Source of the DNA: a virus
Lineage: Duplodnaviria > Caudoviricetes
Strand: one strand, 5' to 3'
IMG/VR virus record: IMGVR_UViG_3300042328_000814
Coordinates: 1 to 57,637 of that record
Length of the DNA: 57,637 bases
In this document: piece by piece, positions 30,221-54,918 of the stretch
How positions within the stretch are numbered: position 1 is the stretch's first letter
Layout: each line of letters starts with the position of its first letter
Notes under the pieces: generated by a model
What the model saw: only the letters and a program-made list of their open reading frames with translations
Database searches by the model: none
Told to the model about the DNA's origin: nothing
Made by a program: the position numbers and the translations under genes

Positions 30221-33200
30221 TTACCTCTTACTTAGAAGTGTTGTTACATGAGAGTGGAAATAATATGGAAAAGTTTTACTACCTTTTATACCTATTCTAA
30301 CTCTACCATTAGTACCACTTAAAGTACTAAATGCTGTAGCAAACTCAGAACGTCCAGAACCACTAGCAGTAAAAGCTGCATCCATCTTCCATACTTCATC
30401 TATATAAATAGTAAATGTAGCAGTCGCCGATGTATTAGTTGCAGGATAACACTCAAAATTAGCTAATACTATAAACCCACCATTTTGTGGAGAACTAAAA
30501 AATGTTTTGTCAAATATAGTTTGCTCAGTAGGAGTTACATTAGCAGATCCCCACTGTTGCTCTAAATAATTAGATATTGTAACAGCATTTCCTGCAATTT
30601 GTAAAGTATCTACAGCTAAATCGCCAATTACACCAGAAGCTGCCGTAATAGTCTTAGTAGACAATTTACTAGCAGTAATAGTATTTTCTACTATTAAACT
30701 ACCATTCATTCTTAAGATTTGCTGTATCCAACCAGTTGGTAAATACTCATAAATTCTATATTCGCCAGTACTAATTTGTACAGTAGCTAAATCCCCCACC
30801 ATAGGAAGCCTACCAAGTTTAGCAGTTACTTCTACATTAGTAGGTGCATATATATCTACCTTTTGTAGTATAAAAGATACTGGTGAGTTGCCATTAGTAC
30901 CAGGAGGACCAGCGGGTCCTATAGGACCTATTTCTCCGTTCTTAGCTATAGATACAATATCATAAGCTACGTTAGTCCAGTCCAAATTAGAATTAACTGT
31001 TGTAGCAGCTACTGTTAGAGGTATTGTTATTCTCCATAGTATACTACCAGGAGTTAAGTTTGTTGGTGCTTCTACACCCCAAGTACTTGGTGCTGTATAC
31101 GCGCCGGTAGCCCATATGTAGCTAGACTGAGTAGTTGGTCTAGTTGGTGGAGTTGTAGTTGTTGTCCATTTATATATTGTTGGGAAAGCACTCATCATGC
31201 CGTGTTGTCCGGCCTGACCAGGAACCCCACTATATACTACTGGCATAGTAACGGTTTTAACTATTGGAGATACTAATGTGATACCATTAGTATCTTTTCC
31301 ATTAATTGTTAATGTTACCTCTATTGAAGTGATATTAGCTGTAGGTACTATTGTAGCAGATATTAAGTTATTAGCAGAAGTTAAACATGCTCCTGGAGTA
31401 ACTGTCCATAAATAGGTTGGATCTATAATATTCTGTGTACTAGCAGTAAGTGTAGCGGAAGTAGGTGTTGGTAATCCACCAGCATTGACACTGAATCCAG
31501 TGAATCCTAATATATCAACTATAGGAGTTAGGGCTGGTTTTAATAAAGCAATACCATATACACCACTAGTTGTACCAGAAGGATACCATACTGATTTTAG
31601 GCCTAACTTATCTACTGTTCTACCCCAGTAATAAAATTCATGAATAGCAGGATTTGTTAATGTATGTAAGTAAGACTTTAGAGGAGCATTGGTTATTGAT
31701 AATAATTGAGCTATAGCCCTATTATTAGTAGTAGAATAGTATATCTCAGTACTAACTATATCATCAGCCGGTACTGGTAGTGTCCAATCAAGTAAAATAC
31801 TTTCTGTAGCACTAGTAGTAGTAAGAGTACTAATTCCTGCTGGTCCAACAATAGTTACAGATATCATTGTTGGAGCACTTTTTATACCTAAGCTATTAAC
31901 AGCAACAAACCAAAATTTATATACATCATCTAGGTTGTCATCTATTAAATCTTTAGTATAATAATCTAAGAATTTAGTAGTTATATCAGTATATCCTAAA
32001 ACTGAAGTAGCAAAAGTTTCATTTACTGTAACTTCATAATGACTAAAGTTAGGGTCACTACTTGGTCCTTCCCACTCAAAATGTATATAGCTCTTCTCTA
32101 CTAAGTATGTAATTGCAGATACTGCTGGTAGAGGTGCTTCTGATATATAAATTAGTATATCAGTAAAGGTTGTAGAGGGACCTTTCTGATTAAGTGAATT
32201 AATTGGAGTTACTCTAATACTATAGTATTCTTGCGAAACTAGATTATATATAGTATGTTCTAATGCAGTTATTCCAGTTGCTGAATACTCCCAATTACCA
32301 TTTGATCTTTTTATCTCTATATCAAATTTAGTAGCATACTTTGGAGCTTTATAGCTAACAGTTAAATAAGGGCTCTTTACTTTTGTAAGTGGATCAGTTT
32401 TTATACCTTGAAAGTATGATATATCTGTGTAAGGTATGGCAAATGGTATACCTGTTACAGATGAATAGTTACTTTCATCAAAGGCTATATCATTTTCTAT
32501 GTAGTCAAACTTACCTGGTTTATGCTTCATAGCAGATATATCATATATACCTACTTGATCAGATTCTCTTAAACTAACTATTCTATATAAGTCTTCATCT
32601 AGTATTGAACTAGAAATGGACCATACAGTATTTGGTCCAATAGATGCATGTAAACTACCAGATATACTTATAGTAGTAGTAGGACTATTAGTTACACCAA
32701 CTACTAAGTACTCTACAGTATTTACTGACTCTACAGTTCCAGTATCTTCAATAATATTAAATCTAATATTATAAATATTTGAAGTACTTAATGTAACTTC
32801 TCTATCTAAGGTTACTAGTGTTGAATTATTCTTATTAATTAGCCTACCACTATAAGGTATATAGGCCATCCCCTCATCAAATACTTTAATTATTTGACCA
32901 GGTTTACAAAAACCAGCCTCTAGTCCAGCTTTAAATGATACGATATTAGATTCTACTTTTTCTGTATATAGTAGCCACTTTCCAAGTCTATGCGCTTGCC
33001 CTCTTGAAGTACATCCAAAAGCTATTATCTCAGAGGGGTTATATCCATATCTTGATATTGCTTCTCTATCTTCTATATATTCTATTTTTTGAGCATATAA
33101 CGCTTTGGGGTCATTCCAGCTAACTAAAGCTGCTGTGTGTATTACTTTTCTTGATGCCCCGGCATACTCAAATGCTCCATTAACTACGTTACTATTAGTA

Positions 33201-34762
33201 AACTGTATTGCTGATGAGTCTGAGTTAGAATCTTGTGCTACACTAATTCCACCTTCTGCATAGTAAACCATACCTCTGAAAACACTAGCCATATCCATTA
33301 CTAATTTTATAGCATCTTCTTTAGTTTGAATATATGTATTAAGTGTAAATCTAGGTTCGTATCCTCCGCTGCCATCTGGTACTAAAGTGTCGCAGTATTG
33401 ACTTATACTATATAAGGCCCATTTATCAACTAGGCTTGCTGGTATATACTCGCCTAATCCATATCTTGAATTAGTTAATAAGTCATAAAAACACCATGCT
33501 GGATTATTTGTCCAACCATAATTAGTTAATTGCCCATCCCATATACCAGTATATGTTCTAGTATCTGCGTCATAGTTACTAGGCATTTTAACTTTCATAA
33601 GTTTAAGATGATATCCCCTTGAAGGTACAGAACTAAATTGTTCTGAAGCAATTTTTACACCGCATAAAGCAGTATGAGGATAGACTAATTTAGTATCAGT
33701 TATTAATGTGCTACCATCTAACCAAATCTCATTTTGTATCTTTAGACTTGTAGAATCATCTGATAGTCTTGTTATTCTTATATCAAAGTAATCAGTGTCT
33801 AAACTTCTATTTAGAATTATGATGTGAGAAAACTGGTATCTAGTAGAACATTTTCCTGATAAAGTTTTTTCTATCTCTTTTACGTAAGCACCACCATTTT
33901 TTGATATTTCAATAGAATACCTTACCTCACTACCAGTAGTATCACCATTATCTTTATACTCAGATAATGAAGGGATACCTAATGTAATACGTACTCTATC
34001 TACTATAACCGCTGGTATGGATACTACTTTAGGTATATCTTTTGAAATTTTACCGTTCGGTGCAGAGTTACCTGGAGATTCAACTGAATCAAATCCTGGT
34101 ATGTAACTTTGATTAGGAGTACCATTTCTTAATGTATACTCATAGTCTGTAAAATTATATGTTCCTGTAGAGTTTTTTAGTGGTGTATTATTAATATATA
34201 TACATTGGTCAGCATCATCTTTAGCAAACCCATGAATTTCACCCTCACAAATAGCATCCAAAACATGTGCATAAGAAGTAGATCTTAGAGTATCTGGGGA
34301 ATTAATAGGGGTTTTACTACCCTTACCTCCACCACCATTATGAACTCTAATGTTATTAGCTATATATGTATGATAAGTTTTTACAGTTAAGTTATAAACA
34401 GTACCTTTACCAATATACTTATAACCAATAATAGGTACTAATAAACCACTAGTATTAATTAGAGATAAACTTTCATTAATACTAGCTAATTCACAGAAGA
34501 AGTTCTCACTAGTTAAAACCCAGTGATTGGGTGTTGCATATAGTTTATTACCGCCCCATAGAGAATACTCGTATATATCTAAGTTATCATGTATATGTGT
34601 ATTCTCTACAGTAGAAGTATGTAGTATACCTTTATCATCAAAAGCTATTATTTCTTGACCTACTTTAATATCTTCAATATTAGTGTAACCAAATGGAGTA
34701 AGTACTGTAGTACCTTTTCTAAAACATCCACCACTTCCAGAAATAATATTATTAATACTCAT
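30221..34762 (-). CDS. tail tip/central fibre protein (lambda gpJ-like) with N-terminal Hint domain
   Basis: D.ICEGEI.G, YP.TA..G, WTNNPAWCFYDL...RYG, GCTSRGQA.R.GKW gpJ motifs; FN3 domains; start at 34762 by ATGA overlap with gpI. Confidence 0.93.
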   Translation of the reverse strand: MSINNIISGSGGCFRKGTTVLTPFGYTNIEDIKVGQEIIAFDDKGILHTSTVENTHIHDNLDIYEYSLWGGNKLYATPNHWVLTSENFFCELASINESLSLINTSGLLVPIIGYKYIGKGTVYNLTVKTYHTYIANNIRVHNGGGGKGSKTPINSPDTLRSTSYAHVLDAICEGEIHGFAKDDADQCIYINNTPLKNSTGTYNFTDYEYTLRNGTPNQSYIPGFDSVESPGNSAPNGKISKDIPKVVSIPAVIVDRVRITLGIPSLSEYKDNGDTTGSEVRYSIEISKNGGAYVKEIEKTLSGKCSTRYQFSHIIILNRSLDTDYFDIRITRLSDDSTSLKIQNEIWLDGSTLITDTKLVYPHTALCGVKIASEQFSSVPSRGYHLKLMKVKMPSNYDADTRTYTGIWDGQLTNYGWTNNPAWCFYDLLTNSRYGLGEYIPASLVDKWALYSISQYCDTLVPDGSGGYEPRFTLNTYIQTKEDAIKLVMDMASVFRGMVYYAEGGISVAQDSNSDSSAIQFTNSNVVNGAFEYAGASRKVIHTAALVSWNDPKALYAQKIEYIEDREAISRYGYNPSEIIAFGCTSRGQAHRLGKWLLYTEKVESNIVSFKAGLEAGFCKPGQIIKVFDEGMAYIPYSGRLINKNNSTLVTLDREVTLSTSNIYNIRFNIIEDTGTVESVNTVEYLVVGVTNSPTTTISISGSLHASIGPNTVWSISSSILDEDLYRIVSLRESDQVGIYDISAMKHKPGKFDYIENDIAFDESNYSSVTGIPFAIPYTDISYFQGIKTDPLTKVKSPYLTVSYKAPKYATKFDIEIKRSNGNWEYSATGITALEHTIYNLVSQEYYSIRVTPINSLNQKGPSTTFTDILIYISEAPLPAVSAITYLVEKSYIHFEWEGPSSDPNFSHYEVTVNETFATSVLGYTDITTKFLDYYTKDLIDDNLDDVYKFWFVAVNSLGIKSAPTMISVTIVGPAGISTLTTTSATESILLDWTLPVPADDIVSTEIYYSTTNNRAIAQLLSITNAPLKSYLHTLTNPAIHEFYYWGRTVDKLGLKSVWYPSGTTSGVYGIALLKPALTPIVDILGFTGFSVNAGGLPTPTSATLTASTQNIIDPTYLWTVTPGACLTSANNLISATIVPTANITSIEVTLTINGKDTNGITLVSPIVKTVTMPVVYSGVPGQAGQHGMMSAFPTIYKWTTTTTPPTRPTTQSSYIWATGAYTAPSTWGVEAPTNLTPGSILWRITIPLTVAATTVNSNLDWTNVAYDIVSIAKNGEIGPIGPAGPPGTNGNSPVSFILQKVDIYAPTNVEVTAKLGRLPMVGDLATVQISTGEYRIYEYLPTGWIQQILRMNGSLIVENTITASKLSTKTITAASGVIGDLAVDTLQIAGNAVTISNYLEQQWGSANVTPTEQTIFDKTFFSSPQNGGFIVLANFECYPATNTSATATFTIYIDEVWKMDAAFTASGSGRSEFATAFSTLSGTNGRVRIGIKGSKTFPYYFHSHVTTLLSKR
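34337..34726 (-). other. Hint (intein-like/BIL) domain, 130 aa, no endonuclease
   Basis: Block A CFRKGTTV, IEDIKVGQ, block B TPNH, block F VYNLTV..HTY.AN, block G VHN; the +1 residue is Gly. Confidence 0.92.
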
Positions 34763-35754
34763 ATAGTTCCCCACTCCGCAGGTTTTACACTACTACCGTT
34801 TGTAGAACAGTAATTATCCTTATTCATACTACTTGAATATCTCCAACCTACATTACAATCTGGGGCAGTACGTTTAAACATTCCAGTTATAGGATTATAC
34901 TCATATTCATATAGCTGTTCTGATGATGGTTTAGATACGCCATTTCCATCAGCATCCCAACACATTTCTTCGTTATCACTATTAATAGAACAAGTTATAC
35001 CAAAGAATGAAGGATCTACATTTTTCATAGTAGAATGATAATACTTATTAGTTACATGGTTATACCAAATATTTGTAGTAGTATTCTTGTAAAAATTTGG
35101 ACTAGCAACTACCCAACCATCAGTATCTAAAGTAGTAAACATCCATGCAGCATTACCAGTACCTATTGAATCTACTGATATACCAGCACTTATAACTGCT
35201 GAGCCAACAATTAATTCACCATATCCTATAGGAACTGGGTTTCCTTGAGCAATCGTATTTACAGCACCATTAAAATAAGTATTCGGAGTATTTTCTTCTT
35301 TTTGATTAACAGTAGCTTTTGGTGGTGCAAATAATAGTGCAGAAATACCAGAGAGTACTAAACCTACTCCAATTTGGGATGCTATGGCAGCACCAGTCCA
35401 TCCAGCAGCAAATCCAGTTGGTGCTACTCCAGCTATTGCTGTAGCTCCAATACCCCAAGTTGCCCATATAAGAAAGGCACCAAGAATAATAGTTCCAAAT
35501 TTGCCAGAACCAGCAATAGCCGGTATAATATGTATATCTTCACTATTGCCTATAATGTCATTTATTTCATTCTTTTCTTTAAATATGTCACCTATTTTAA
35601 TATGGAATCCTGGAGTATAATTCTGTATATAATCAGCAAATCCTTTAAAATTAGCCTTTAAAGCACGTATAGCTTCACCTACAGAGTGTATATCTAATAC
35701 TACTTTGTCAGTAAATTTTAAGCCTAATTCACCATGTAAGTAAACTGTTTTCAT
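34759..35754 (-). CDS. tail assembly protein I (ubiquitin-like N-domain) with C-terminal extension
   Basis: V.LHGELG.KF, IHIIP.IAGSG, F.G.VNT..QG.PVP..YGE..VGSAVISAG. Confidence 0.9.
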   Translation of the reverse strand: MKTVYLHGELGLKFTDKVVLDIHSVGEAIRALKANFKGFADYIQNYTPGFHIKIGDIFKEKNEINDIIGNSEDIHIIPAIAGSGKFGTIILGAFLIWATWGIGATAIAGVAPTGFAAGWTGAAIASQIGVGLVLSGISALLFAPPKATVNQKEENTPNTYFNGAVNTIAQGNPVPIGYGELIVGSAVISAGISVDSIGTGNAAWMFTTLDTDGWVVASPNFYKNTTTNIWYNHVTNKYYHSTMKNVDPSFFGITCSINSDNEEMCWDADGNGVSKPSSEQLYEYEYNPITGMFKRTAPDCNVGWRYSSSMNKDNYCSTNGSSVKPAEWGTI

Positions 35755-36464
35755 ACTAAGTCCTTATGTCTATATACTGCTACTGCACATTTATTCCAAT
35801 AGCCACCAAAAGCGTCTCTAGTGGATAACCTATTTTCACAGTGATGTAAGAAAGTACCATTATCATGTAAAATACCAACATGATTTGGTACCTTAGATTT
35901 TCCAGATTTAAAAAGTATTATATCATACTTTTTAGCCTCAGAAAAATTAATTTTCTTAAATCCGTATTCTTCAGAATGTTCCTCTAGAATATTTAAACCA
36001 TTAGTATACCACTCTTTAGAGGTTACTAATAATCTACCTACATTTATATTTTTTTCATATTTGAGGACATCTGAAATAAGCCCCCAGCAATCAGTAGTAC
36101 CAAAACTATACTCCCTACCTAGTAGTGGTATTTCTATGCTATTAGGTACTAAATAATATATATCTCTAGATACAGCTGAACATATAGCCCACGTAGTACT
36201 ACCAGCGTTACAACTATGTATATCTGCCTGTGTTGGTCTACACGATATTCCTAGATGACTATGACATATTAAGTCTATAGTACCTAAACTAGAATACTTT
36301 GCATAATCTATAGGATCCATAATAAAATTATGTGGATCTTCTGATATATTTGAGCAAGGATAATACTTATCATTTATAACTAGACCACATATTTCCTTAT
36401 CAGTACTACTTTGACTATGATTTATAAAATCAAGTGTATAATCCTGCACCAGGAAATCCTCCAA
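35751..36464 (-). CDS. tail assembly protein K (JAB/MPN + NlpC/P60)
   Basis: EICGL, HSH......PT.AD JAMM motif; DCWGL, NHVGI NlpC motifs. Confidence 0.92.
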   Translation of the reverse strand: MEDFLVQDYTLDFINHSQSSTDKEICGLVINDKYYPCSNISEDPHNFIMDPIDYAKYSSLGTIDLICHSHLGISCRPTQADIHSCNAGSTTWAICSAVSRDIYYLVPNSIEIPLLGREYSFGTTDCWGLISDVLKYEKNINVGRLLVTSKEWYTNGLNILEEHSEEYGFKKINFSEAKKYDIILFKSGKSKVPNHVGILHDNGTFLHHCENRLSTRDAFGGYWNKCAVAVYRHKDLV

Positions 36465-37493: not shown

Positions 37494-37837
37494 AGTATAT
37501 CATTAACTTTAGTAAACTTTGTATTAATTGTAATACTAATATGTGATTCATACTTAATATCCCATTCACTAGCTATTACTAAATATGTAGTAGTAGAGCC
37601 GGGTGGTGTGAAATAAAAAGATTCACACCCACCTCTAGCCTTTAAAAAATTAATAATTTCATTAGCTTCAGCAATAGGTTTATTACTGAAAGCTAACTCC
37701 CACTCTAAATTTAATAAATTTATACCAGTACGTTTTCTATACTCAAGAGGACTATTATCATATTGAATAACGTTAACTCTTGGAGACGACTTCTTAGTGA
37801 AATTTAATGAAGGGTTCCAGGTAAAAGTACTAGGCAT
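37490..37837 (-). CDS. minor tail protein M-like paralog, copy 1
   Basis: TFTWNP, GIN, FLKARGG..SF.FTPP; same length (115 aa) as its neighbour but lacks FGDGY. Confidence 0.85.
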   Translation of the reverse strand: MPSTFTWNPSLNFTKKSSPRVNVIQYDNSPLEYRKRTGINLLNLEWELAFSNKPIAEANEIINFLKARGGCESFYFTPPGSTTTYLVIASEWDIKYESHISITINTKFTKVNDIL

Positions 37838-40800
37838 TTAATAGGCCCCTTGGACGCATCTGTTTAATTAGTTCTTCTTGAACTGTGGCTTTAACTGCTG
37901 CAGCCATAGAAACACTAAACTTTTTAGATTGTTCAACATCAACAGTACTACTACTTCCGCTTTCACTATTATTAATTTTTACAGTAACGATAGTATCCCC
38001 ATTAGTAATAGAAGCCCCACCACCTCCTGATAAAGTAACTGGAATAGTCCTATTATCTGGTAGTGGAACATAAGCTTCATTCTTTCTACCTTCTCCAAAC
38101 ATTGCAATTTGGGGTGAATTAGCTATACCACCTCTAGCATACTTGTGCAAAGGTATATCACCCATTTGTCCAACTATACCACCCTTTGCTTTTGCAAAAA
38201 TACTAGGGAAAGCGTTAGTTAATCCGCCTGTTATACCCCCACTAATAACACTAGTGGCTACCCCCATTAGTATTCCACCGAGAGCCCCTTTAGCACTACC
38301 TCCAGTAGCAAGTGCACCAACTAAAGCACCTACTGCTCCATGCATAACAGTAGTAGCCATGTTAAACTTATCAGCAGCTACGTCTATTTTTGTTCCACCC
38401 TTCTCAATATTAGTAGTGGCTGTCTTATTCAGAGTAGGTATACTACTATCTTGCATAGCTGGTGGTTGCATAACATCCGGTACGGGTATACTGCCTGGGT
38501 TAATCTTTTGTGCTATCTCGTTAAGAAGTCTATTAGTTTCTTTAGCGGAAGCTGCTGTAGAACTAACTGGCTGTACTAAAGGATCGTAAGTTCCAGCTGG
38601 TGCGCTAGTAGCGCCAATACTAGATACACCATCTAGTTGCCTAGACATAATAGATGCACTAGTTGGATATGGATATGGGGATGTTCTAACTCCAGTATCA
38701 TTAGCTTTATTAGCTTTCTCCCAATCAAGGTTATACTGTTTATCCAAATCTATGCCTTGTTGAGCTATAGGATCTATCTTACCTGGTACTAATGCCTGTA
38801 GTAAAGCCCTCATATCCTGTTGAATTAACTTTAGTTGATCAAGAGAACTATTAGCAGTAATCTGTAGTGCACTAGCCGCTTTTTCTTGGTTAGTACGAGT
38901 ATCATACCCAAAATTTGCTGCTAGTAACTTGATTCCACTCTTCATAGCATTTTTAAATGCGTCTGAGGCCATATCCCTAAACATGTCGCTTAAAGTATTT
39001 CTGACCATATCACTAAAAGCTTTGAAAGTTAATTTTGTCTCATCCATTTTCTGTATCATAGTAGTAAAACTATCTACTATTATATCTGCAGAATCTACAA
39101 TTCCAGTAGCCAGTTGAGACATAACAGACTTAGATTTACCTGTAGTTTCCTCTATTCTATCCATGGCTATAGTTATAGCCTCTTGTAGTCCTTCAGTACC
39201 AAAAATATCTGAAGCTCTACCAGACTGCTCTCTTATTTTTAAGCTGAGCTCAGTTTCCTTTTTAAATAGATCAGTTAATTTTTGATGAGTATCTAATTTA
39301 AAAGCTAAGTGTTGCTGTTGTAAGTCTACTATCTTCTGTTCTGCTTCTATATCTCCAACTTTAGATTTTTCAATAGCTATTTGAGCTTCAAGTATTCTCT
39401 CTTGTATTGAATATTGTTCTAGTAGTGTTTGAGTACTTACTGTATTAAACTCAGCAATTTTACTATAGTTAGTAGATACACTAAGTAAATAATCAGAGTA
39501 GGAAGAGGCTAGGTCTACTTGTTCACTTAAATTATCAGAAAGTTTTTCAGTTATTTCTAGGTTAGTTTTTCTAATTCTTAAATTTTCTTCGTCTTGTATA
39601 ACCTTGGGTAGGTCACGTAGTGGTTCACCTTTTTTGAAAGCTTCATCCCTAGCCCTAGCTTTACCAACTACAGCTTCTCCTATAGATACATTAGTAGGAT
39701 CTTTTATTAATTGTTCTACAAGAGTATTATACTCCCCTATCTTTATTGCTAAATCTTTCTCATATTGTAATATATCAGCTTTTGCTTTAATAAGATTAAT
39801 TTCACTATCTACTCTAGCAGATAAGTAAGATGAATCTAGTAATGCAATACTTTGTGATTTTTTCTCTAGATTATTGAGCTCTTCGAATAGTTTATCTTCT
39901 TCAGGTTTAAATTTCTTATCAGCTTCAGCATCAGTTTCCTTAAATTCTGCTCTAGCCTCGGATTCTCTAGCTTTGCCTAGGGAGGCTCTGATTGAGTCTA
40001 TTTTTAGAGTTGCAATTACACTAGCAGCCCCTAAGGACTCTAAACTATTAACTAAGGATAGAATTTGAGATGCTATAGACCCATCAAGTTCTTTTACTGA
40101 TAAAGCTTGGATAGCTTGATCTTTTACAGATCCTGTACCTAGAGGACTAGGATTATTGCTTTTGCTATTCTTAAATAGTTCTTTTGAGGCTAAAGATAGA
40201 GCAGTTCTTAATTGTTGCTCTGTATTTGATTTTTGAGCATCTATAGCTGCTGCATTAGTTTTTTCTGCTTTTATTTGAATATTTGCTATTTTTTCTTCAG
40301 TTTTACGTGCTTCTCTAATAGCTCTAGCTTCTCCTTCTTTTGAAAAACTACCATAAAATTGAGTTTCTTTAAGCTTAGCGGATAGACTAGTTTGTGCCAA
40401 GGATGCGCGTCCGGCTGCAGTAGCTAAGTCTGCTAAACTTTTTGAAGCTTTTAATGAATATCCGATATAGTCCTGTTGTACTTTTTCAATTCCACCGTAT
40501 GAGCCTAGTAGTGAACTAGTACCTTGACTAAGAGATTTTGCTCTATCATCCTCTGCTTTTTTCTGAAGATCTTTATCAGACCCAGCCAATTCCATAGCTG
40601 TTTTATAGTTATTATTTACATCTTCTTGTAATCTATTTAGCCTAGTACGTAATAATTCTAGATCCGCTGGTAGACTTATACCAGACATTTCTTCAAATTG
40701 ATCTGTAATGCCAGATAAAAATTCTTGAATATTAGCACCAGATTTAGTAAGATCATTTTTATCTAGAAGTTTAATAGCTTGTGCACTAGAAGTACTAAAA

Positions 40801-43205
40801 GCATTAAGAGCCTTTAACTCTTTTGATTGATTAGTAATAGAAATAATATAATCACTAGAAATATCATTAAGTTCTTTTAGATTCTTTGACATTCCTGAAG
40901 CGGTATCGGCGTACTCTTTGGCCTCTTTTCTCAATTTGGGGTCATTTAGAGCGCTGAATACTTTTCTTACTACGTCTTCTGTATCACCAAGTCCTAGTGC
41001 ATTAGCTCTTCTAAAAGATGCTGCAGCTGTGGTACTGGCCCCTTTAATATTGGTTGTGAAAGTATCTTTATTAGCAGCAGCAAATTTCTTATCTGTAGCC
41101 ATCCTCCTATCAAATTCTTCCATGATAGGATCCATAGCAATTTTACCGCCACTACCTCCATACCCAAGAGTAAACATATTAGCCATGTCATCAAAGTACG
41201 ATGTTAGTAGTCCAGCATTAGCTTTAAAGTCATTATACTTTTTCATTGCTTCACTTACTGCACCTAATGATTCTGCGAAGCTCATAGCAGACGAAGCATT
41301 TAGCTCAAATATAGTATGAAAGTCACCAGCTACCTTTAAATCTTCACTAATTTTTTTACTTAGATCTAGCTTACTATTTAGAGAAGTCATGCTTTCTTCT
41401 AACTTAGCCGCATGATCTGTAGTTAATCCTAATGCATTAGTTATACCACCTAATATAGGTAGTAATATTGCTGCGGTGGCACCCCAGACAGAAAAAGTAC
41501 CTAATAGCCTTCCTACACTTATAGTTAGTGCACCTAATCCACCACGTAGTCTTAACATACCGGCTTCAAAAGGACTTAAATTAAGTTTAGCAATCTCTTT
41601 ATTTAGATCTGCGAAACCATTGCGAAAGCCTAATAATTCTGTTTTTTCATATACTGCTGATAAAGCTTTTCTTTTATTAGCTACATGCTCTAGTGCCTGC
41701 CCCTCTATTTTTAGACTTTGTAAAGCCTTCTCATGTGCATGCGTAGTAGCATTAGCCGAGGCAGCTTGACCTGCTGAAGTAGATGTCTGCTGTATTAATC
41801 CATTATCCCCTTGTAGGCTTTGTAGTGCAGTACGTTGAGTTTCTAGTTTTTTTAGCTCTTTATCACCACTTTTACCTATTCTAGCTAACTCAGCTTGTTT
41901 TTGTTTTATTTTTTTATCTATGTCTTTTAGAGCACTATCAACAGAAGCTAAAGCTAGGTCTCTATTTTTATTTATGTCTTCGGGTTTGCCCCATAATAAA
42001 GAATTAATATTAGTATTTAAACTATCAAATTGTTTTCCACTTAGTGTTTTCTTTAAACCCTTCTCTAAGTTAGATTGAGTTTCTTTAAGGGCTACTTGTG
42101 ATAATCTTTTTTCTTCATTTTTTGCATCTATCAAAGCTTTTTGCTTTGCCTCAATAGCGGCTATTTGTGACTCTACCGCATCTTGCGCAGCTTTACTAGA
42201 AGCAATCCATGCCTCCCTCATATTACCTATAGCAGGTATAGCTTGCTTAAGTAATAAACCTACTATAGCAATCATACCAAGTAGCAAGGCAGTAGGACTC
42301 TGAGAAAGCATATTCACAAATGGGCCTAATACTGAGTTCATAGTAGTTAGTACACCAGTACTTAGATCTTTAATTGTAGAAAATAGTTTAGAGAAGGGAT
42401 TAGCGGCTTGATCTGCTAGTTCTTTGTACTTATTTATACCTTGAGTAGTTACTGCATTAACGAAAGCTTGTCTACGCTCATAGTCTGTTAGTACTGATAC
42501 AGTTTTACCTAGAGTTTTTGCGTAAGCTTTATTTGCATCATCTACTTTTACCATTAAACCTAATTCATCTAATAGTTCTGGTTCGATCTTAATAGTACCA
42601 CGGAATACGCGTTGTAAGGCATCAGTCATATCGCGACCTAGCGCAATAGAGGCACCTTTGGCAACAGTAGTTAATTCTTTAATCTGAGTAGTTGTTAATC
42701 CCGCAGAACTAGCTAATGAGGCGGAACCTAGGGCGTCAGCCATAGATATAGCTCCGTCGGTTAGATCCTTCATATCTTTAGCTAGGCCATTAATACTTGC
42801 ACCTACTTTTCTAGATAGTATATCTGCTGCTTTTTCCATATTAGTGAAATCAGCGGCTTTTGATAAGGCGTTGAATGCAGCACTTACAGCGTATACGTTA
42901 GCTGCGAATGTAGCATATAAGTGAACTAGGCCACCTAGCCCTTGGGCTTGTCTGCCGAAGTCACGCGCGTCACCCCTACCTTGTGCACCTGCAGTTCCGC
43001 GGCCCAGGCCCTCTGTGGTTGGAGGAATGGCTCCTCCGCCTATACCACCAGACGCAGAAAGGGCAGCCGAAGCCGCCCGTGTTTGCACTTTTCTAGGTTG
43101 TGCGGTACGGTCTAATACATCGTTTAGCTTGCGTGCCTCGCCTGCTACTTGTTTTAAAGTACCATTATCTGTTACTTCTACCGTTACTTTTCTAGTATCA
43201 GCCAT
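37830..43205 (-). CDS. tape measure protein
   Basis: 1791 aa, helical, TM segments; T5 pb2-like N-terminus (YA..AAN.Y, K.EPELLDELG); lambdoid C-terminus (A.GG, GE...EA.VPL). Confidence 0.93.
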   Translation of the reverse strand: MADTRKVTVEVTDNGTLKQVAGEARKLNDVLDRTAQPRKVQTRAASAALSASGGIGGGAIPPTTEGLGRGTAGAQGRGDARDFGRQAQGLGGLVHLYATFAANVYAVSAAFNALSKAADFTNMEKAADILSRKVGASINGLAKDMKDLTDGAISMADALGSASLASSAGLTTTQIKELTTVAKGASIALGRDMTDALQRVFRGTIKIEPELLDELGLMVKVDDANKAYAKTLGKTVSVLTDYERRQAFVNAVTTQGINKYKELADQAANPFSKLFSTIKDLSTGVLTTMNSVLGPFVNMLSQSPTALLLGMIAIVGLLLKQAIPAIGNMREAWIASSKAAQDAVESQIAAIEAKQKALIDAKNEEKRLSQVALKETQSNLEKGLKKTLSGKQFDSLNTNINSLLWGKPEDINKNRDLALASVDSALKDIDKKIKQKQAELARIGKSGDKELKKLETQRTALQSLQGDNGLIQQTSTSAGQAASANATTHAHEKALQSLKIEGQALEHVANKRKALSAVYEKTELLGFRNGFADLNKEIAKLNLSPFEAGMLRLRGGLGALTISVGRLLGTFSVWGATAAILLPILGGITNALGLTTDHAAKLEESMTSLNSKLDLSKKISEDLKVAGDFHTIFELNASSAMSFAESLGAVSEAMKKYNDFKANAGLLTSYFDDMANMFTLGYGGSGGKIAMDPIMEEFDRRMATDKKFAAANKDTFTTNIKGASTTAAASFRRANALGLGDTEDVVRKVFSALNDPKLRKEAKEYADTASGMSKNLKELNDISSDYIISITNQSKELKALNAFSTSSAQAIKLLDKNDLTKSGANIQEFLSGITDQFEEMSGISLPADLELLRTRLNRLQEDVNNNYKTAMELAGSDKDLQKKAEDDRAKSLSQGTSSLLGSYGGIEKVQQDYIGYSLKASKSLADLATAAGRASLAQTSLSAKLKETQFYGSFSKEGEARAIREARKTEEKIANIQIKAEKTNAAAIDAQKSNTEQQLRTALSLASKELFKNSKSNNPSPLGTGSVKDQAIQALSVKELDGSIASQILSLVNSLESLGAASVIATLKIDSIRASLGKARESEARAEFKETDAEADKKFKPEEDKLFEELNNLEKKSQSIALLDSSYLSARVDSEINLIKAKADILQYEKDLAIKIGEYNTLVEQLIKDPTNVSIGEAVVGKARARDEAFKKGEPLRDLPKVIQDEENLRIRKTNLEITEKLSDNLSEQVDLASSYSDYLLSVSTNYSKIAEFNTVSTQTLLEQYSIQERILEAQIAIEKSKVGDIEAEQKIVDLQQQHLAFKLDTHQKLTDLFKKETELSLKIREQSGRASDIFGTEGLQEAITIAMDRIEETTGKSKSVMSQLATGIVDSADIIVDSFTTMIQKMDETKLTFKAFSDMVRNTLSDMFRDMASDAFKNAMKSGIKLLAANFGYDTRTNQEKAASALQITANSSLDQLKLIQQDMRALLQALVPGKIDPIAQQGIDLDKQYNLDWEKANKANDTGVRTSPYPYPTSASIMSRQLDGVSSIGATSAPAGTYDPLVQPVSSTAASAKETNRLLNEIAQKINPGSIPVPDVMQPPAMQDSSIPTLNKTATTNIEKGGTKIDVAADKFNMATTVMHGAVGALVGALATGGSAKGALGGILMGVATSVISGGITGGLTNAFPSIFAKAKGGIVGQMGDIPLHKYARGGIANSPQIAMFGEGRKNEAYVPLPDNRTIPVTLSGGGGASITNGDTIVTVKINNSESGSSSTVDVEQSKKFSVSMAAAVKATVQEELIKQMRPRGLLNA

Positions 43206-43989: not shown

Positions 43990-44016
43990 AAATAGGAGGG
44001 CATAAAGCCCTCCTCT
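43990..44016 (-). terminator. terminator after the tail tube gene
   Basis: AGGAGGGC-TTTAT-GCCCTCCT-ATTT on the minus strand. Confidence 0.75.
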
Positions 44017-44020
44017 TTTA

Positions 44021-45370
44021 TTATAGGATACCGTAGTAGGAAACTACTAGGTTATTTGTCTTCTCAATATTATAGTCGGTGCCTTGGTAACCTTGAGCAG
44101 TAAATCCAATAGTTGTGGAAACTACGTCTTGAATGTCTACAGTAGGTACTTGTAATTGGCAGCCATCCATCAACATCTCAACTCTAGTTTGGTTAGAAAT
44201 ACCACCAATTTCAATCTGAAGTTTAAACTTAGTTTCAGAAGTAGTAGTAAGACCTGCTAGAATATCGGTTAGTAGCTTTGCTGACTCAAAAGAACCAGTT
44301 TTTAGGTAAGCATTTAAACTTCCAGTAATGGAACGTGTACCTGTGAAGTAACCAATAGAGTTATTAACAACACCCATATTTTCAGGAGTTAGATACTCAA
44401 TATTATTATTAATAGTTAAATTACCACCAGTAATTGGTAAACTATAAGTATTCCCTGCTGTACCACTAATATTACTAACTAAAGTAGTAGTACTTAGTTT
44501 ATTGGTAATGTAATATTTAGCATCATTGGTTGGGAAGGGGGTATAGTTACTACCAGTCCATGTTTGTAAGGTAGCCGGGGAAGTTAGTGTAGTACCAAAT
44601 CCACTCCATGCAATCATTGCAATACCTTGTAAATCAAAAGTGATCTCTGCTTGGTTAACCGCAGCATTTGCAACCTTATAGATTGTATTATCTACTTTGA
44701 AGATAAGAGTAAACTTCTGTAGTTCATTCTTATTTGAACCTAGAGTAGAAGATACTGCTTTACTTGCTTCTTCGTGCCACTGACCGGTAAATATAGATGA
44801 GGATGTAACTGTACCATTAGGTCCTGTTGGGGCTACTGTAGTTTCTAAGTCTACAATTATATCATTACCGCTTTTTCCTACTACTCTGAAGTAACCATTA
44901 CCAGTAGAACTACCTGTTAATCCAGTTGTTCCTGTAATTCTGACCATGTCCCCTAAAGCTACAGTATTTGCTGCCTTAGTTAAGGTCATAGCATAAGAAC
45001 CGTTGACTAGAGCTACTGTACCTCCCGTCCATCCGGTTACTGCTGTGGAACTGATAGATGCACTACCCATTAAAGCATTCCATAAATACTTTTCTGGGGC
45101 TGTTACTACTGCTGCTGGTTTGTATGGTCTAATATATGTACTCATACTCCAATCTACTGGATTTAGTTTACTATTGAAAGCACGTTCACCACGAATTGGA
45201 GCAGTTCCTGCTTCTGATAATGTAATAGTTTGTTGTTCTGTATTCTGACTAAAGCTATAGCCATCTAATACTTGAATTTCGAAAGTATTAGCCGCGGTAT
45301 AGTCACCTAGAACATCAGTAGTAGCTGTGCTGAAGAATACCTTTGTATTTCTACTTAAATTTACTGCCAT
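44021..45370 (-). CDS. major tail tube protein (T5 pb6-like)
   Basis: L.RNT..F.ST, EAG..P.RG...FN..LN...WS.STYI.PY, LW.AL, NQAE, ITGG...INNNI.YLTP motifs recalled from pb6. Confidence 0.92.
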   Translation of the reverse strand: MAVNLSRNTKVFFSTATTDVLGDYTAANTFEIQVLDGYSFSQNTEQQTITLSEAGTAPIRGERAFNSKLNPVDWSMSTYIRPYKPAAVVTAPEKYLWNALMGSASISSTAVTGWTGGTVALVNGSYAMTLTKAANTVALGDMVRITGTTGLTGSSTGNGYFRVVGKSGNDIIVDLETTVAPTGPNGTVTSSSIFTGQWHEEASKAVSSTLGSNKNELQKFTLIFKVDNTIYKVANAAVNQAEITFDLQGIAMIAWSGFGTTLTSPATLQTWTGSNYTPFPTNDAKYYITNKLSTTTLVSNISGTAGNTYSLPITGGNLTINNNIEYLTPENMGVVNNSIGYFTGTRSITGSLNAYLKTGSFESAKLLTDILAGLTTTSETKFKLQIEIGGISNQTRVEMLMDGCQLQVPTVDIQDVVSTTIGFTAQGYQGTDYNIEKTNNLVVSYYGIL

Positions 45371-45424
45371 AAAATTCTCCTATATACGAAATTAATAACG
45401 TAGTCAGTATTTACTAGCATTGTA

Positions 45425-45856
45425 CTAAATTTCGTATCTTATTGATAAATTCATTTCACCAACACCAAATGGTGCTAGTAGTCCTTCATCTGTGGTTATT
45501 GAAGTGATAAGAATCTCTGTTGTACTCTTACCAGTTTCATATTCTAGCAGTTCATTATCTGTAACAACCTGCTCTACATCTTGTAGAAGATCCTCTAGCT
45601 TACTAGTTGGGTCTTCTGAGTTGACATATAATTTAAGGGAGACATTTAAAAATCCCCACTTAAATCCTCCTGGGTGATATTCTCTAGTTTCACTACCCGG
45701 AACTATACATACTGCTGGAAAGTCTGAGAGCTCGTCCCAGAATACCAGTCTAGTAAGTATGTTGCTAGGAAACAGAGTACTTTTAAATGGAGAGGCCCCA
45801 TTTATACTTTTGATCTTTTCAGCTAGTTTTTTAGCTATGGAGCTTCTTGCACTCAT
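45425..45856 (-). CDS. tail terminator (T5 p142-like)
   Basis: RSSIAK.L, G.ETR.Y.P, TDEGLL.P.G.GE. Confidence 0.88.
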   Translation of the reverse strand: MSARSSIAKKLAEKIKSINGASPFKSTLFPSNILTRLVFWDELSDFPAVCIVPGSETREYHPGGFKWGFLNVSLKLYVNSEDPTSKLEDLLQDVEQVVTDNELLEYETGKSTTEILITSITTDEGLLAPFGVGEMNLSIRYEI

Positions 45857-45885
45857 AATTCCTCTCTTTTTATATTAACCCACAC

Positions 45886-45914
45886 ATTATATAATAGTAG
45901 AAAAATAATTTCAA
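45886..45914 (-). promoter_or_regulatory. strong sigma70-type late promoter for tail terminator/tube
   Basis: TTGAAA-N17-TATAAT on the minus strand, then GAGAGGA RBS. Confidence 0.8.
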
Positions 45915-45928
45915 CTATATTTTCCAGT

Positions 45929-47461
45929 CTATACTATTACCGTTCTCATCCTAGACTTAGTTAGTTGTGCTGCTATTTCTCTTACTGACCTATCTATTAA
46001 AGCTACAGGACTCTTATCTATGCTACCTTGGTCACCCCCTGGTTCAAAAGTTGCATAAGGATACTTCATGTAGCTTAAAAAAGCAGTTAGTGCGTTTTGT
46101 CTACTATCAAACTGCACAGAGTTTAATTTAACTGACTCTGCAAATCTACCAGTTTGATAAGTTAGCGCCGGAGGCGCCATATTCTTACGTATTACTTCCT
46201 GAAGCCGTGCGGATAGAAGACCCTGTAGATTTACTACTGACTGGAAAGCTCCTGAAGTTGAGCGAAGTCTACTAGTATTTTTTGCTTTAACTATTAGTGA
46301 AGACTGGTTATTTATTCTATTGGAAGCAGTATTTGTATTTAATTTATGAGATACTTGTTTTGTGACCCTAGATATAGTATTAGTACTTTTAGTATTTTTG
46401 CTGCCTAGTATAGTATCTACTATATGGTCAGTTATTTGTTCTCTGAATGACTTAGAACCGTGTAGATCTATAGTACCTGTATAATCCTTACCTAGTTTTT
46501 TATTATTGCGAATAGTAGAAAATAGAGATTCCATTACTAATCGTTTAAACTCATTAGTAATTCTAGACTCTGAATCTCCACCTTGATTTCTAGGAGAGGA
46601 TTCTATAAATACTGTTACTGCTCCTCTACGCTTTTTTATATCAAATTCTGTTTTTTCTACTGTGAAGTTGTGCTTAACTACAGTTTCTTTTGCTTTTGAT
46701 ATTGCAGCTTTTTGTATGCCAGTAACTAGTTTCTTGATTTCTGCTTCTGTTAGTGTTTTTCCTGGTTTATTTAATTGAGGTATCTGGGCTATGGTATCCC
46801 TTACTAATCTATCTAGTAAATCTTTATTAGAGGCGATTAATTCTATTTTCTTATAAGCAACCGGTATATTATGTCCTACGTCAAAACCTAGATCAAGTTC
46901 CTTGCTATATAGCTTGGCATGTAGGGCCTGTGCTTCTTTACCCCCATTCTTTAAAATAGATAGTATAGTTTTGAATTCTTTTGGTTGGCTAAATATAGCC
47001 TCACCTACTCCGGATAACCTTATAAATTCTTCCTTAATACTATTATTATCTTTTACATAATTAAGTATACTAGTATCTCTATCTAGTAGGTTTATTGAAC
47101 TAATAAAAGATCTAACTTGATCAAATGAATCAAAAGTTAATATATGGCCCTTTTCACCAGTACTACTTATAGTCCTATGAGGTACTCTGCCAGATCTATG
47201 CTTCCTAGTTTTCCTATACGCGGCTAATATTGCGTATACTGCACTTTTATCTTTAGTTGCTAATTTATCTATAGATTGTGGAGCTAAAGACTTTAGTAGC
47301 TCTTCACTTATTACTAGTACATGTACTGTTTTGTTTAAATTAGTTCTTAGATCGGAAGTAGTTGTTCTCTCTTTACTACCAACTACCTTGTTACCTAGCT
47401 CATTAATAGGTATTGCTGCTGTAATCTCATCTAATAATTCACCAAGAGCTTTCTTACTCAT
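45929..47461 (-). CDS. tail completion protein (T5 p143-like C-terminus, long basic N-terminal extension)
   Basis: L.YQTGRFA.S, YM.YPY..FEPG, P..LI..S.REIA; synteny. Confidence 0.72.
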   Translation of the reverse strand: MSKKALGELLDEITAAIPINELGNKVVGSKERTTTSDLRTNLNKTVHVLVISEELLKSLAPQSIDKLATKDKSAVYAILAAYRKTRKHRSGRVPHRTISSTGEKGHILTFDSFDQVRSFISSINLLDRDTSILNYVKDNNSIKEEFIRLSGVGEAIFSQPKEFKTILSILKNGGKEAQALHAKLYSKELDLGFDVGHNIPVAYKKIELIASNKDLLDRLVRDTIAQIPQLNKPGKTLTEAEIKKLVTGIQKAAISKAKETVVKHNFTVEKTEFDIKKRRGAVTVFIESSPRNQGGDSESRITNEFKRLVMESLFSTIRNNKKLGKDYTGTIDLHGSKSFREQITDHIVDTILGSKNTKSTNTISRVTKQVSHKLNTNTASNRINNQSSLIVKAKNTSRLRSTSGAFQSVVNLQGLLSARLQEVIRKNMAPPALTYQTGRFAESVKLNSVQFDSRQNALTAFLSYMKYPYATFEPGGDQGSIDKSPVALIDRSVREIAAQLTKSRMRTVIV

Positions 47462-48030
47462 TATCTAATAACCCTATATAAATCTAGGACACGCTTAATG
47501 TGATGAGGGAAATCAGAACTACGAATGTACTCAATACTAACAGAACCTTGGGTTTTTCTAGGAGATGCTTCACGCTTCATATAGTATTCTAGTAAATCTA
47601 GAGCTGCTATATACAAGTCACCTGGAAGTACTGAGTAACCAGCTCTATATGTAATCTTGAAGTAGTTTGGATAATTAATATCAGCAGCACCAAATATGAC
47701 TAGTCTATCATTTTGTCTATCAATTAGATAATCAGTATACTCTGCTAGTGGTATATATGTTTGACCACTGTCTTCTGAATAAGCAACCTCTTCTACACTA
47801 AGTATAGGAAATTCCTCTGTATATAGATAGTCATCTCCTCCATTATAATATTGTACAATATCTAAAAATTCCTCAGTATCAGCATCATAGCTATCAATGA
47901 AACTTCTAGTACAATAATTTTTAATTAACTGACTAATATAAGGTATTAATAGCTCAATGCGCTCATCTTGATCTGTACTGCTAATATTTGTATAGAGCTT
48001 ATAATCGTCGACTGTAATTAGGTTTCTCAT
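47461..48030 (-). CDS. head completion/head-tail adaptor (T5 p144-like)
   Basis: LIT..DYK.Y, ITY.AGY..LP.DL..A, FP.HIKRVLD.YR. Confidence 0.85.
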   Translation of the reverse strand: MRNLITVDDYKLYTNISSTDQDERIELLIPYISQLIKNYCTRSFIDSYDADTEEFLDIVQYYNGGDDYLYTEEFPILSVEEVAYSEDSGQTYIPLAEYTDYLIDRQNDRLVIFGAADINYPNYFKITYRAGYSVLPGDLYIAALDLLEYYMKREASPRKTQGSVSIEYIRSSDFPHHIKRVLDLYRVIR

Positions 48031-48353
48031 TTATTCACCACCTGGATTTTTACACTTCTATCATCTTCTCTACCTAAAGATGTTACAATAGATACTACTA
48101 CTATGTACTCTTTCCCAACTAAACCACCATCTAACCAGAATAGTACTGAAGTATTACTATCTGATATAGTTGAAGATACTACTACTAACTCAGCTGGTTT
48201 GCTAGATACTACTGTGGCTGATACTATAGTTTCCGAATCTAATACTTGTAAATAATCTGTAGTAGCTCCAGGTCTATTATTTGTTTTTGATGCGAAATCC
48301 ATTAAGTAGTCTAACTTAGCTTCTGGATCTTTCTGAAGTTTTTTTATTGCCAT
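48027..48353 (-). CDS. putative fibre adaptor (small Ig-like protein)
   Basis: KDP...LDY..D, WL.GG..G..Y....TS.GR.D.RS motif common in phage fibre-adaptor proteins. Confidence 0.6.
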   Translation of the reverse strand: MAIKKLQKDPEAKLDYLMDFASKTNNRPGATTDYLQVLDSETIVSATVVSSKPAELVVVSSTISDSNTSVLFWLDGGLVGKEYIVVVSIVTSLGREDDRSVKIQVVNK

Positions 48354-48429
48354 ATGTACTCCTATCTGTGGGTGACCACTATTATCCTACTTAGAGGAAC
48401 TCTTCTGAATGAAACTACTATATATTTCC

Positions 48430-48462
48430 AAGAAGAACCCCAGGATTTACCCCAGGAGTTTT
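48430..48462 (-). terminator. possible terminator hairpin closing the appendage cluster
   Basis: AACTCCTGGG-GTAAA-TCCTGGGGTT-CTTCTT (one mismatch) in an intergenic gap. Confidence 0.5.
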
Positions 48463-48468
48463 TCCACA

Positions 48469-49005
48469 TTATATAGGCCCCCAAGGATTAAGTTCAGTAC
48501 CTATTCCGGTAACTTCTATATTATTAACTTTTTGTATATCTGCATGTATTGGTGTAACTTGTGCAGCAGCTAATACTGCAGCAGCGTTTTCATTAGCAGT
48601 AGGGGCAGGTGTTCCAGTAGTAGATAAAGCCTGAGTCATTTGCGAAACTCTAGACTGTATTATTGTAGTTGCCATGGGCCAAGGTATAAAAAATGGTAGG
48701 TTTGGATCTGTTGGATAAAAATTACCATCTATTACTACTTGTACATTACCTACATCTGGAGGAACTCCTCTCCAACCTAAATCATTTCTAATAAAGACAT
48801 ATGCCCCTAGAAAAGTTCCGCCACCTAAGGAGTCTCCACCAGCCGTGGAAAAGGCTGGTGGATACTTTAAATTATCTCCTTGAATAGTCCAATCTACCCA
48901 CTCAGAGTACAACTCCTGAGCAGTAAACTGGAATACTCCACCTACTACAGCAAGCGGGTCACCTTCAATACTCAAAGTTGGTCCATCAAAGATGAACTTG
49001 CTCAC
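48469..49005 (-). CDS. putative virion structural protein
   Basis: AGGAG RBS; LYSEW.DW, GGD.LGGG motifs. Confidence 0.65.
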   Translation of the reverse strand: MSKFIFDGPTLSIEGDPLAVVGGVFQFTAQELYSEWVDWTIQGDNLKYPPAFSTAGGDSLGGGTFLGAYVFIRNDLGWRGVPPDVGNVQVVIDGNFYPTDPNLPFFIPWPMATTIIQSRVSQMTQALSTTGTPAPTANENAAAVLAAAQVTPIHADIQKVNNIEVTGIGTELNPWGPI

Positions 49006-49014
49006 AATATCTCC

Positions 49015-50397: not shown

Positions 50398-50405
50398 ATA
50401 TTTCC

Positions 50406-54916: not shown

Positions 54917-54918
54917 TT

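Follow-up and report, generated by a model that had tools for sequence, protein, structure and literature searches.

A HINT domain lacking a +1 nucleophile in the poly-glycine leader of a lambda-type gpJ tail-tip protein of uncultured phages

Most of what is known of inteins and bacterial intein-like (BIL) domains comes from enzymes of replication and packaging and from variable proteins secreted by bacteria. The IMG/VR virus record IMGVR_UViG_3300042328_000814, whose 57,637 bases are analysed here in full (the window), codes for a HINT domain in an unusual place, the very beginning of the gpJ-like tail-tip protein. The domain ends with His-Asn and the residue that follows it (+1) is Gly, where canonical class-1 splicing needs Cys, Ser or Thr. 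The locus raises the question of what such a domain does at the start of a structural protein of the virion and whether the phage depends on it. An earlier note, made from the sequence of the window, had proposed that it may be a domesticated maturation device. The explanation that we regard as reasonably probable is an optional HINT domain of the A-type BIL kind, placed within the poly-Gly leader of gpJ, which removes itself by thioester formation and Asn cyclisation and perhaps religates its flanks by aminolysis.

Position and fold of the domain

The gpJ-like gene, which codes for a tail-tip or central fibre protein of 1513 amino acids followed by a stop codon, lies on the minus strand (30221-34762), as do all features described in this section. 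Its translation reproduces exactly the residues quoted in the earlier note. The protein matches the PHROG family phrog_31 ('central tail fiber J', E-value 2.8e-255) and the Pfam families FNIII-A_GpJ (1.1e-25) and Phage-tail_3 (1.2e-20). Together with a J-specific N-terminal region and the gene order L-K-I-J, these are the hallmarks of a lambda-type J. The N-extein is a leader of 12 residues, MSINNIISGSGG (34727-34762), which contains the motif (hydrophobic)-x-G-[AS]-G-G and ends with Gly-Gly, Gly12 being the -1 residue. The HINT domain, a BIL-A-like mini-intein of 130 amino acids without endonuclease, spans residues 13-142 (34337-34726). It opens with Cys13 (34724-34726; intein position 1), the predicted thioester nucleophile, has Thr77-Pro-Asn-His80 (TxxH; 34523-34534) as block B and closes with blocks F and G, VYNLTVKTYHTYIANNIRVHN (34337-34399), whose last residues are His141-Asn142. 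The C-extein starts with GGGGKGSKTP (34307-34336), with Gly143 at +1, Gly144 at +2 and a lysine, Lys147, embedded in glycines; the first residue with a hydroxyl or thiol group beyond Gly143 is Ser149. The conserved J body then begins with ..SPDTLRS..DAICEGEI.. (residues 153-200; 34163-34306), and this same motif also comes after the leader in relatives without the domain (Hint-less relatives).

Residues 13-142 are a HINT domain by matches far above chance. Both NCBIfam models for intein ends pass their cut-offs (intein_Nterm, TIGR01445, 25.3 bits for a cut-off of 24.5; intein_Cterm, TIGR01443, 17.6 bits for 15.6). A phmmer search of the PDB sequences retrieved an Npu DnaE intein chimera (2e-7), the Clostridium thermocellum BIL domain 2lwy, aligned end to end (1e-6), and the Mtu RecA mini-intein (3e-5). 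The fold was predicted with AlphaFold2 for J residues 1-190 using an alignment of 9 sequences. The per-residue confidence (pLDDT) is 83-96 over residues 10-140 and below 50 for residues 1-9 and 144-164. Foldseek ranks 2lwy as best match of this model (E 2.5e-10, root-mean-square deviation 1.7 Å, template-modelling (TM) score 0.86 on target), followed by BIL2 of the Tetrahymena BUBL loci (6y75, E 5.8e-10) and afterwards by many mini-inteins and Hedgehog. There are 65 PDB chains at E ≤ 0.001, and among the matches listed all are inteins, BIL or Hog domains. The block F stretch is VYN in the window domain and in 2lwy, whereas it is VYD in the DnaE intein. There is no room for a homing endonuclease within the 130 residues, and Hom_end_hint gives a weak alignment of 30 of them (E 0.092); its absence follows from the end-to-end alignment with endonuclease-free mini-inteins. 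The translation, the NCBIfam models and the modelled fold thus bear out the earlier note's description of an intact HINT domain at the J N-terminus, without endonuclease and with Gly at +1.

The NCBIfam lambda_TipJ model aligns its positions 2-57 to J residues 143-200. Because this alignment begins directly after the domain, it places the insert right at the beginning of J. The state of the site without insert was obtained from relatives of the J body. A query with residues 143-640 gave 6848 matches among 1.84 billion representatives, and in the best 150 of them (50%-identity representatives), which were examined, the domain is present in 17. Hint-less relatives begin with Met, a few residues, hydrophobic-x-G-[AS]-GGGG-K-GGGG and then ..TP.E..D.L.S, a pattern found in 98 of the 107 Hint-less proteins with a leader of 8-60 amino acids. 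The leader is uninterrupted also in Hint-less relatives with 57-76% identity in the J core. In P0122, whose J core is 55.9% identical to that of the window (BLASTP; 58% in the J-body search), the leader M-x-I-I-G-S-GGGG-K-GGG-..TP.E.PD.L.S is like the window leader fused straight to the window C-flank. From this continuity it follows that the domain sits precisely within the poly-Gly run and that its removal restores an ordinary J start. The earlier note had deduced the same from the window, and the comparison of homologues with and without the insert that it called for gives a precise insertion into an otherwise seamless leader. The insertion site itself is a low-complexity Gly run. Two other arrangements were seen in J homologues. 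P0199 and P0262 carry a whole gpI-like protein as their N-terminus (I-J fusions), P0262 retaining a poly-Gly-Lys linker at the joint. In P0010, P0012 and others the match to the J body is broken up into 2-3 stretches that are offset by several hundred residues, which points to putative large insertions inside the J core.

Conservation, distribution and genomic setting

Of 693 candidates from a search with the first 200 residues of J, 287 proteins have E ≤ 0.001. The 120 matches listed are all built of a leader, a Hint of 129-131 amino acids and a J start, at 35-79% identity, and the leader measures 8-25 amino acids in the 118 that were parsed. In IMG/VR there are at least 598 pattern matches and 589 confirmed loci, of which 80 were retained. 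Protein clusters with this insert at this site number at least 287, and IMG/VR loci at least 589. The domain is present in 130 of the 263 proteins assembled for this study and measures 129-132 amino acids in all 133 copies; three proteins have a tandem pair. Apart from the domain, the two I-J fusions are the sole cases of a long extension of the N-terminus in the 263 proteins.

Cys1, TxxH and His-Asn are intact in all 130 proteins that carry the domain. An alignment of 26 divergent representatives (≤70% identity) has Cys1, the Thr and His of TxxH, V-[YWF]-N-[LFI] and R-V-H-N in every row. The -1 residue is Gly in 128 of the 130 proteins (Pro is found in one locus) and the +2 residue is always Gly. 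At +1 there is Ala in 96 proteins, Gly in 25 and Thr in 9, that is a residue without nucleophile in 121/130, and two loci (L013 and L014) have Ser. The median ratio of non-synonymous to synonymous substitution rates (dN/dS) is 0.097 (interquartile range 0.067-0.137), obtained from the 428 of 1835 pairs with a computable dS, which are not independent, most pairs being saturated. The earlier note had named sporadic decayed copies in relatives as a sign of a neutral remnant. The invariant catalytic residues and a dN/dS around 0.1 rule out a neutral decayed remnant, and the domain is, to judge from its residues, active or recently active wherever seen.

Three further arrangements of Hint domains deserve description. 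The tandem copies of P0004, P0005 and P0013 (residues ~22-292) are both intact and 50-55% identical to each other, with GGGGGKG or GGGGGGGGKG between them. A related Hint (PT-HINT, 38.1 bits) occurs in a Magnetococcales metagenome-assembled genome (L003:7383-9839, plus strand), ~210-220 residues into an 818-amino-acid tail protein with Phage-tail_3; its C-flank is GGGGKGSS and its N-extein is a whole domain. Another, with 34% identity and Val at +1, is encoded in Kiloniella laminariae (L004:809-2400, plus strand) within a 2340-amino-acid open frame with EF-hand/Ca-binding repeats, a classical BIL setting.

The presence of the domain is patchy on the J phylogeny. A FastTree phylogeny of the J body of 184 representatives (≤80% identity; 55 with and 129 without the domain) shows at least 15 presence changes. 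IQ-TREE, applied to 64 rows hand-picked from the 184 (31 with the domain and 33 without it that stand near them), gave 15 changes again, and branches with SH-aLRT ≥95 force at least nine. In the latter tree the window J belongs to a well-supported group of six rows, four with and two without the domain. In the Hint tree the flank types GGGG, TGSG, GGHRE-like and AGLG are coherent. Hint and J distances show only moderate correlation (Spearman 0.56), and the Thr and GGHRE types are spread over several separate J clades. Read from these trees, the patchy pattern would mean repeated loss, transfer by recombination, or both, and the poly-Gly codons that flank the domain may offer a route to its precise in-frame deletion. 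The GC content of the Hint is 0.28 versus 0.34 for the rest of J; no sign of a recent foreign acquisition in this phage is seen in these values. Close Hint-less relatives, sparse carriage and 15 gains or losses (nine at least well supported) indicate that J can function without the domain. Since the domain is evolutionarily optional for J, the word 'domesticated' of the earlier note is too strong.

The exact stretch was found in 22 lake-water DNA runs from 22 studies (2020-2025), one of which is maybe the source sample. Contigs of independent lake metagenomes have the identical allele: among those from four of these runs, one of 926 bases covers both junctions with 0 differences. No contig of the four lake-water runs joins across the domain, as a Hint-less allele of the same phage would, though contigs cannot show absence. 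Two metatranscriptome runs share a small fraction of the sampled words. Contigs of other phages from the same lakes (two runs) have in common with the window only 34737-34768, the 32 bases of the I/J junction and leader, with 2 differences; they diverge on both sides of it, and one of them is 4354 bases long with a depth of 10.

The record is estimated to be ~51% complete (CheckV) and has a GC content of 33-39% over most of its length. Its genes include a DNA polymerase, an SbcC-like protein, a ribonucleotide reductase and the lambda-type tail module, encoded on the minus strand in the order tape-measure protein (37830-43205), two gpM paralogues, gpL, gpK-like, gpI-like and gpJ-like. The gpK-like gene (35751-36464) codes for an NlpC/P60 peptidase (NLPC_P60, 7.3e-15) whose N-terminal half is weakly JAB-like (Prok-JAB E 0.0023; 18.2 bits, under the cut-off of 25). 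Directly upstream of J lies the gpI-like tail assembly gene (34759-35754), whose stop codon is overlapped by the J start at 34762 (ATGA). Residues 1-83 of its product align to Pfam Lambda_tail_I (E 0.0035, under cut-off). This product is 331 amino acids long versus ~190-260 in most related loci and has a C-terminal extension of ~130 residues, rich in Cys, Asn and Tyr, with no family match. Elsewhere in the window, the GC content rises to 0.46 at 50001-55000 versus 0.33-0.39 in the other parts, and the open reading frame of 1340 amino acids in this GC-rich part (50406-54428, minus strand) has no PHROG match at E ≤ 1e-5. A megablast search of 44000-57637 against GenBank phages found no near-identical DNA. 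In Ralstonia phage Dina the annotation places a gene pair for a HicB-like antitoxin and a toxin (L086:888-1477) between the genes for tail assembly and the J-like tail gene, on the opposite strand.

Removal of the domain and competing explanations

The scheme adopted here for the window domain is that of A-type BILs, because the two agree feature for feature. In the accessible text of PMC4031507, type A BILs end with His-Asn, which sets them apart from type B, form an N-terminal thioester and undergo C-terminal cleavage by Asn cyclisation. BILs without a +1 nucleophile give no branched intermediate; ligation occurs when the freed amino group attacks the thioester, and cleavage products dominate. 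The earlier note's comparison with A-type BILs is apt, given this chemistry, the best fold match (2lwy) and the shared Asn of VYN, and with Gly143 at +1 its exclusion of canonical class-1 splicing stands. As we infer them, the steps, products and timing of removal would be the following. After translation, Cys13 would attack the carbonyl of Gly12, aided by Thr77 and His80, to give a Gly-Gly thioester. Asn142, aided by His141, would cyclise and cut the Asn142-Gly143 bond, and Gly at +1 would make a branched ester impossible. The leader thioester could then be hydrolysed, in which case the leader would be lost and J would start with GGGGKG. Alternatively, the freed alpha-amine of Gly143 could attack the thioester and produce MSINNIISGSGG-GGGGKG, as Hint-less J genes encode directly. 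By both routes the 14-kDa domain would leave J. In types with a duplicated leader motif (see below) C-terminal cleavage alone would expose a near-native leader, while in the window type ligation would recreate the native one. The thioester step seems to matter, and not only the C-terminal cut, because Cys1 and block B are as strictly conserved as His-Asn.

Lambda J was modelled from residue 1 (PMC12617516, available text) and lambda gpJ's N-terminal region packs with gpL and gpI (PMC10721106, available text); three 14-kDa domains left on J would probably interfere with this packing. No statement on the exact place of the J N-terminus in the assembled tip was found in the main text of the literature available. 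We propose that the catalytic residues stay intact since a J left unprocessed would be unfit, and that in evolution the domain would be an optional passenger with many gains or losses.

Several observations weigh against this explanation. The profile search suggested in the earlier note gave a divided answer: the NCBIfam models for intein ends pass but all four Pfam Hint-type models score under their gathering cut-offs for the window copy (Intein_splicing 29.3 versus 35.8). No endonuclease within the domain, or seen adjoining J, accounts for its spread. In one clade every one of the 28 representatives, which are all of the Ala type, bears the Hint, and this shows long stable retention. A tblastn search of 50,697 GenBank phage records with the first 201 amino acids matched 280 records, none of them with ≥80% coverage, and the fusion is absent from the records searched. 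Matches from Klebsiella, Ralstonia and Acinetobacter phages that apparently reach into the Hint were rejected as spurious extensions through Gly-rich sequence, since the J gene begins after the match start in each. Canonical splicing could take place in some members, those with Thr (9 proteins) or Ser (2 loci) at +1. The remaining points come from the flanks of the domain. Retention of the leader motif on both sides suggests selection at the protein level, whereas pure self-removal would let the N-extein drift. The similarity of the two motif copies within a protein is higher than in all 5000 shuffles (77 non-redundant pairs; shuffles ignore relatedness). A Gly-embedded Lys follows the domain in 55/55 Hint-bearing representatives versus 79/103 Hint-less ones, a count that again ignores relatedness.

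The second motif copy is found in the Ala, Thr, Ser and GGHRE-like types, in which His-Asn is followed by a linker of 4-12 amino acids, the motif and then poly-Gly-Lys. The two copies often agree even in rare variants, such as IQGASTGG (L049) or GSKGG (L074-L076, P0215), and in the Thr type IRG or IKG is matched in both. Identical peptides are written with different codons: in L049 9/9 residues are identical and 5/9 codons differ, in L084 9/9 and 7/9, in L036 8/8 and 6/8. A recent DNA duplication or gene conversion is thereby excluded as source of the two copies. In the Ala type taken alone, the x position is identical in 17/63 pairs compared to a shuffled mean of 11.2, and 124 of the 5000 shuffles reach 17. 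The Gly-embedded Lys occurs after the domain in all 130 proteins, 15-20 residues downstream in Ala types, and each Hint of the tandem proteins P0004, P0005 and P0013 has its own GGGGGK behind it. The motif on both sides and the constant lysine suggest that the domain may be more than a passenger, and they keep open the three outcomes listed in the earlier note: a free poly-Gly end, acylation of a partner and an assembly gate. The neighbouring gpI adds a further likeness. Its ubiquitin-like domain ends with IIPAIAGSGK (35500-35529, minus strand), resembling the J leader motif, and [IL]-x-P-[VA]-[IV]-x-G-[AS]-G is found at this place in 47/48 related loci. Iyer, Burroughs and Aravind (2006) predict, in the part of their paper available (PMC1779556), that the gpK JAB domain cuts gpI at the glycine of that motif. 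Covariation of the gpI tail motif and the J leader, judged by eye only, revealed the same motif class and no clear residue-by-residue match.

These data have to be set against other explanations of the domain. We attach a lesser but real chance to a domesticated maturation or timing device, in which the bulky domain would block the J N-terminus until cleaved, gating tip assembly with gpI, gpK and gpL, the leader motif and its second copy binding the same partner in turn. The uniformly Hint-bearing clade of 28 representatives, the strong purifying selection across the whole domain, the motif on both sides with synonymous differences and the tandem double Hints, both intact in P0004, P0005 and P0013, are what such a device would lead one to expect, and lambda gpJ's N-terminal region is the docking place of gpI and gpL (PMC10721106, available text). 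It sits poorly, however, with close relatives that work without the domain, with at least nine and most parsimoniously 15 gains or losses and with a domain carried by only 17 of the best 150 of 6848 relatives; lambda J, for its part, is resolved from residue 1 and needs no processing there (PMC12617516, available text). A good deal less likely is conjugation, whereby Lys147 or a lysine of a partner would resolve the Gly-Gly thioester, leaving the leader linked by an isopeptide bond without ATP. The lysine present in 55/55 representatives and 130/130 proteins would be its acceptor, each tandem Hint has a GGGGGK of its own, the leader, with its terminal Gly-Gly, is similar to the end of the ubiquitin-like domain of gpI, and BUBL BIL2, the second-best fold match, forms a Lys isopeptide (PMC8616854, available text). 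But the same lysine stands in 79/103 Hint-less J representatives and is not domain-specific, its association with the domain ignores relatedness and in Ala types it is 15-20 residues away from the domain. In a bolder version, to which we give a comparably small chance, the Hint would act within J itself as an activating enzyme of the leader that needs no ATP. The Gly-Gly end of the leader, a mimic of the gpI ubiquitin-like tail, would become a thioester and then be handed on to the Lys of GGGG-K-GGGG or to another tail protein as partner, so that the tip would be branched or cross-linked, and the JAB-like peptidase of gpK would read or trim the hydrophobic-x-G-[AS]-G-G motif. If true, tail assembly would involve a ubiquitin-like tagging circuit encoded by the phage, which would account for the motif kept on both sides of the domain.

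The two explanations left are very improbable. One is an inactive structural or decorative domain that stays on the virion J, for which the +1 Gly that forbids canonical splicing and the Pfam scores under cut-off could be quoted. An inert fold does not need catalytic residues that are invariant in 130/130 proteins, the site is a flexible leader, as seen in Hint-less relatives, and the AlphaFold2 model has no confident contact between domain and flanks (pLDDT <50, residues 1-9 and 144-164). The other, and the most improbable of all, is an ordinary class-1 intein with canonical splicing in this phage. Blocks A, B, F and G, the passing NCBIfam intein end models and the Thr or Ser at +1 of some relatives agree with it. 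In the window, however, +1 is Gly and the next hydroxyl or thiol is that of Ser149, +1 is Ala or Gly in 121/130 proteins, and BILs without a +1 nucleophile form no branched intermediate (PMC4031507, available text).

Whichever explanation applies, hundreds of lineages of uncultured phages, in lakes and other waters, carry a HINT domain that lacks a +1 nucleophile at one fixed site of a virion structural protein. In the literature search, which covers subscription papers thinly, no publication connected a Hint, BIL or intein with gpJ, with host-specificity proteins or with those of the tail tip. With Gly, Ala, Thr and Ser at +1, one scaffold offers a natural experiment on splicing turning into cleavage or aminolysis. 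A small, predicted self-processing module with an all-Gly context and a very short N-extein may interest protein engineers. The leader motif, the Gly-embedded Lys and the neighbouring ubiquitin-like gpI and JAB-like gpK bear on the roles of gpI and gpK in lambda-type tail assembly.

Likeness to known systems

One comparison is that with the lambda gpI/gpK pair (ubiquitin-like and JAB domains). The L-K-I-J order is shared and the gpI end motif is like the J leader, but the likeness consists of short motifs only and the gpK JAB match is weak; lambda J itself has no leader motif and is intact from residue 1 (PMC12617516, available text). Pretoxin-HINT (PF07591) and the Hedgehog Hog domain belong to the same superfamily as the window domain. 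PF07591 and PF01079 are precomputed Pfam matches in many of its relatives, and the PT-HINT cut-off is passed in L003 and L004, while the window copy stays under the Pfam cut-offs. In those systems a toxin is freed at the C-terminus or cholesterol is attached to a signalling domain at the N-terminus, whereas here the complete J is the C-terminal cargo and a peptide the N-terminal one. BIL2 of BUBL (6y75), the second-best fold match, is likewise a HINT placed after a segment that ends with Gly-Gly, and it is reported to transfer its N-extein to lysine without ATP (PMC8616854, available text). Its N-extein is a folded ubiquitin-like domain and not a 12-residue peptide, and sequence identity is only 17%.

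Class-1 mini-inteins (Npu DnaE, Ssp/Npu DnaB, the splicing domain of Mtu RecA, gp41-1) share with the window domain the fold and blocks A, B, F and G. They also share its genetics: a precise in-frame insert, intein-free alleles of the host gene, a normal host protein on removal and patchy presence among relatives. A Cys, Ser or Thr at +1 and a homing endonuclease, or a trace of one, are missing from the window copy. The Gly at +1 would preclude trans-esterification, the insert lies in a low-complexity linker instead of a conserved active site, the host is a structural tail protein and not a replication or packaging enzyme, and block F has Asn versus Asp in the DnaE intein.

The A-type BIL, represented by 2lwy, is the closest match by fold and matches the whole domain in sequence at 1e-6. 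The window copy has in common with it Cys1 (Cys13), Thr77-x-x-His80, C-terminal His141-Asn142, +1 without nucleophile, Asn in VYN and lack of an endonuclease, and the related Hint in the Kiloniella Ca-binding repeat protein stands in a classical BIL setting. BIL domains sit in non-conserved parts of hypervariable, often secreted, bacterial proteins (PMC2814812, available text). Here, in contrast, the host is a phage tail-tip protein and the domain keeps to one fixed site in its poly-Gly leader, behind a very short N-extein of 8-25 amino acids. Members with Thr or Ser at +1, the leader motif duplicated downstream in many of them and, as for an intein, Hint-less alleles that are seamless at the site further distinguish the gpJ domains from the A-type BILs.

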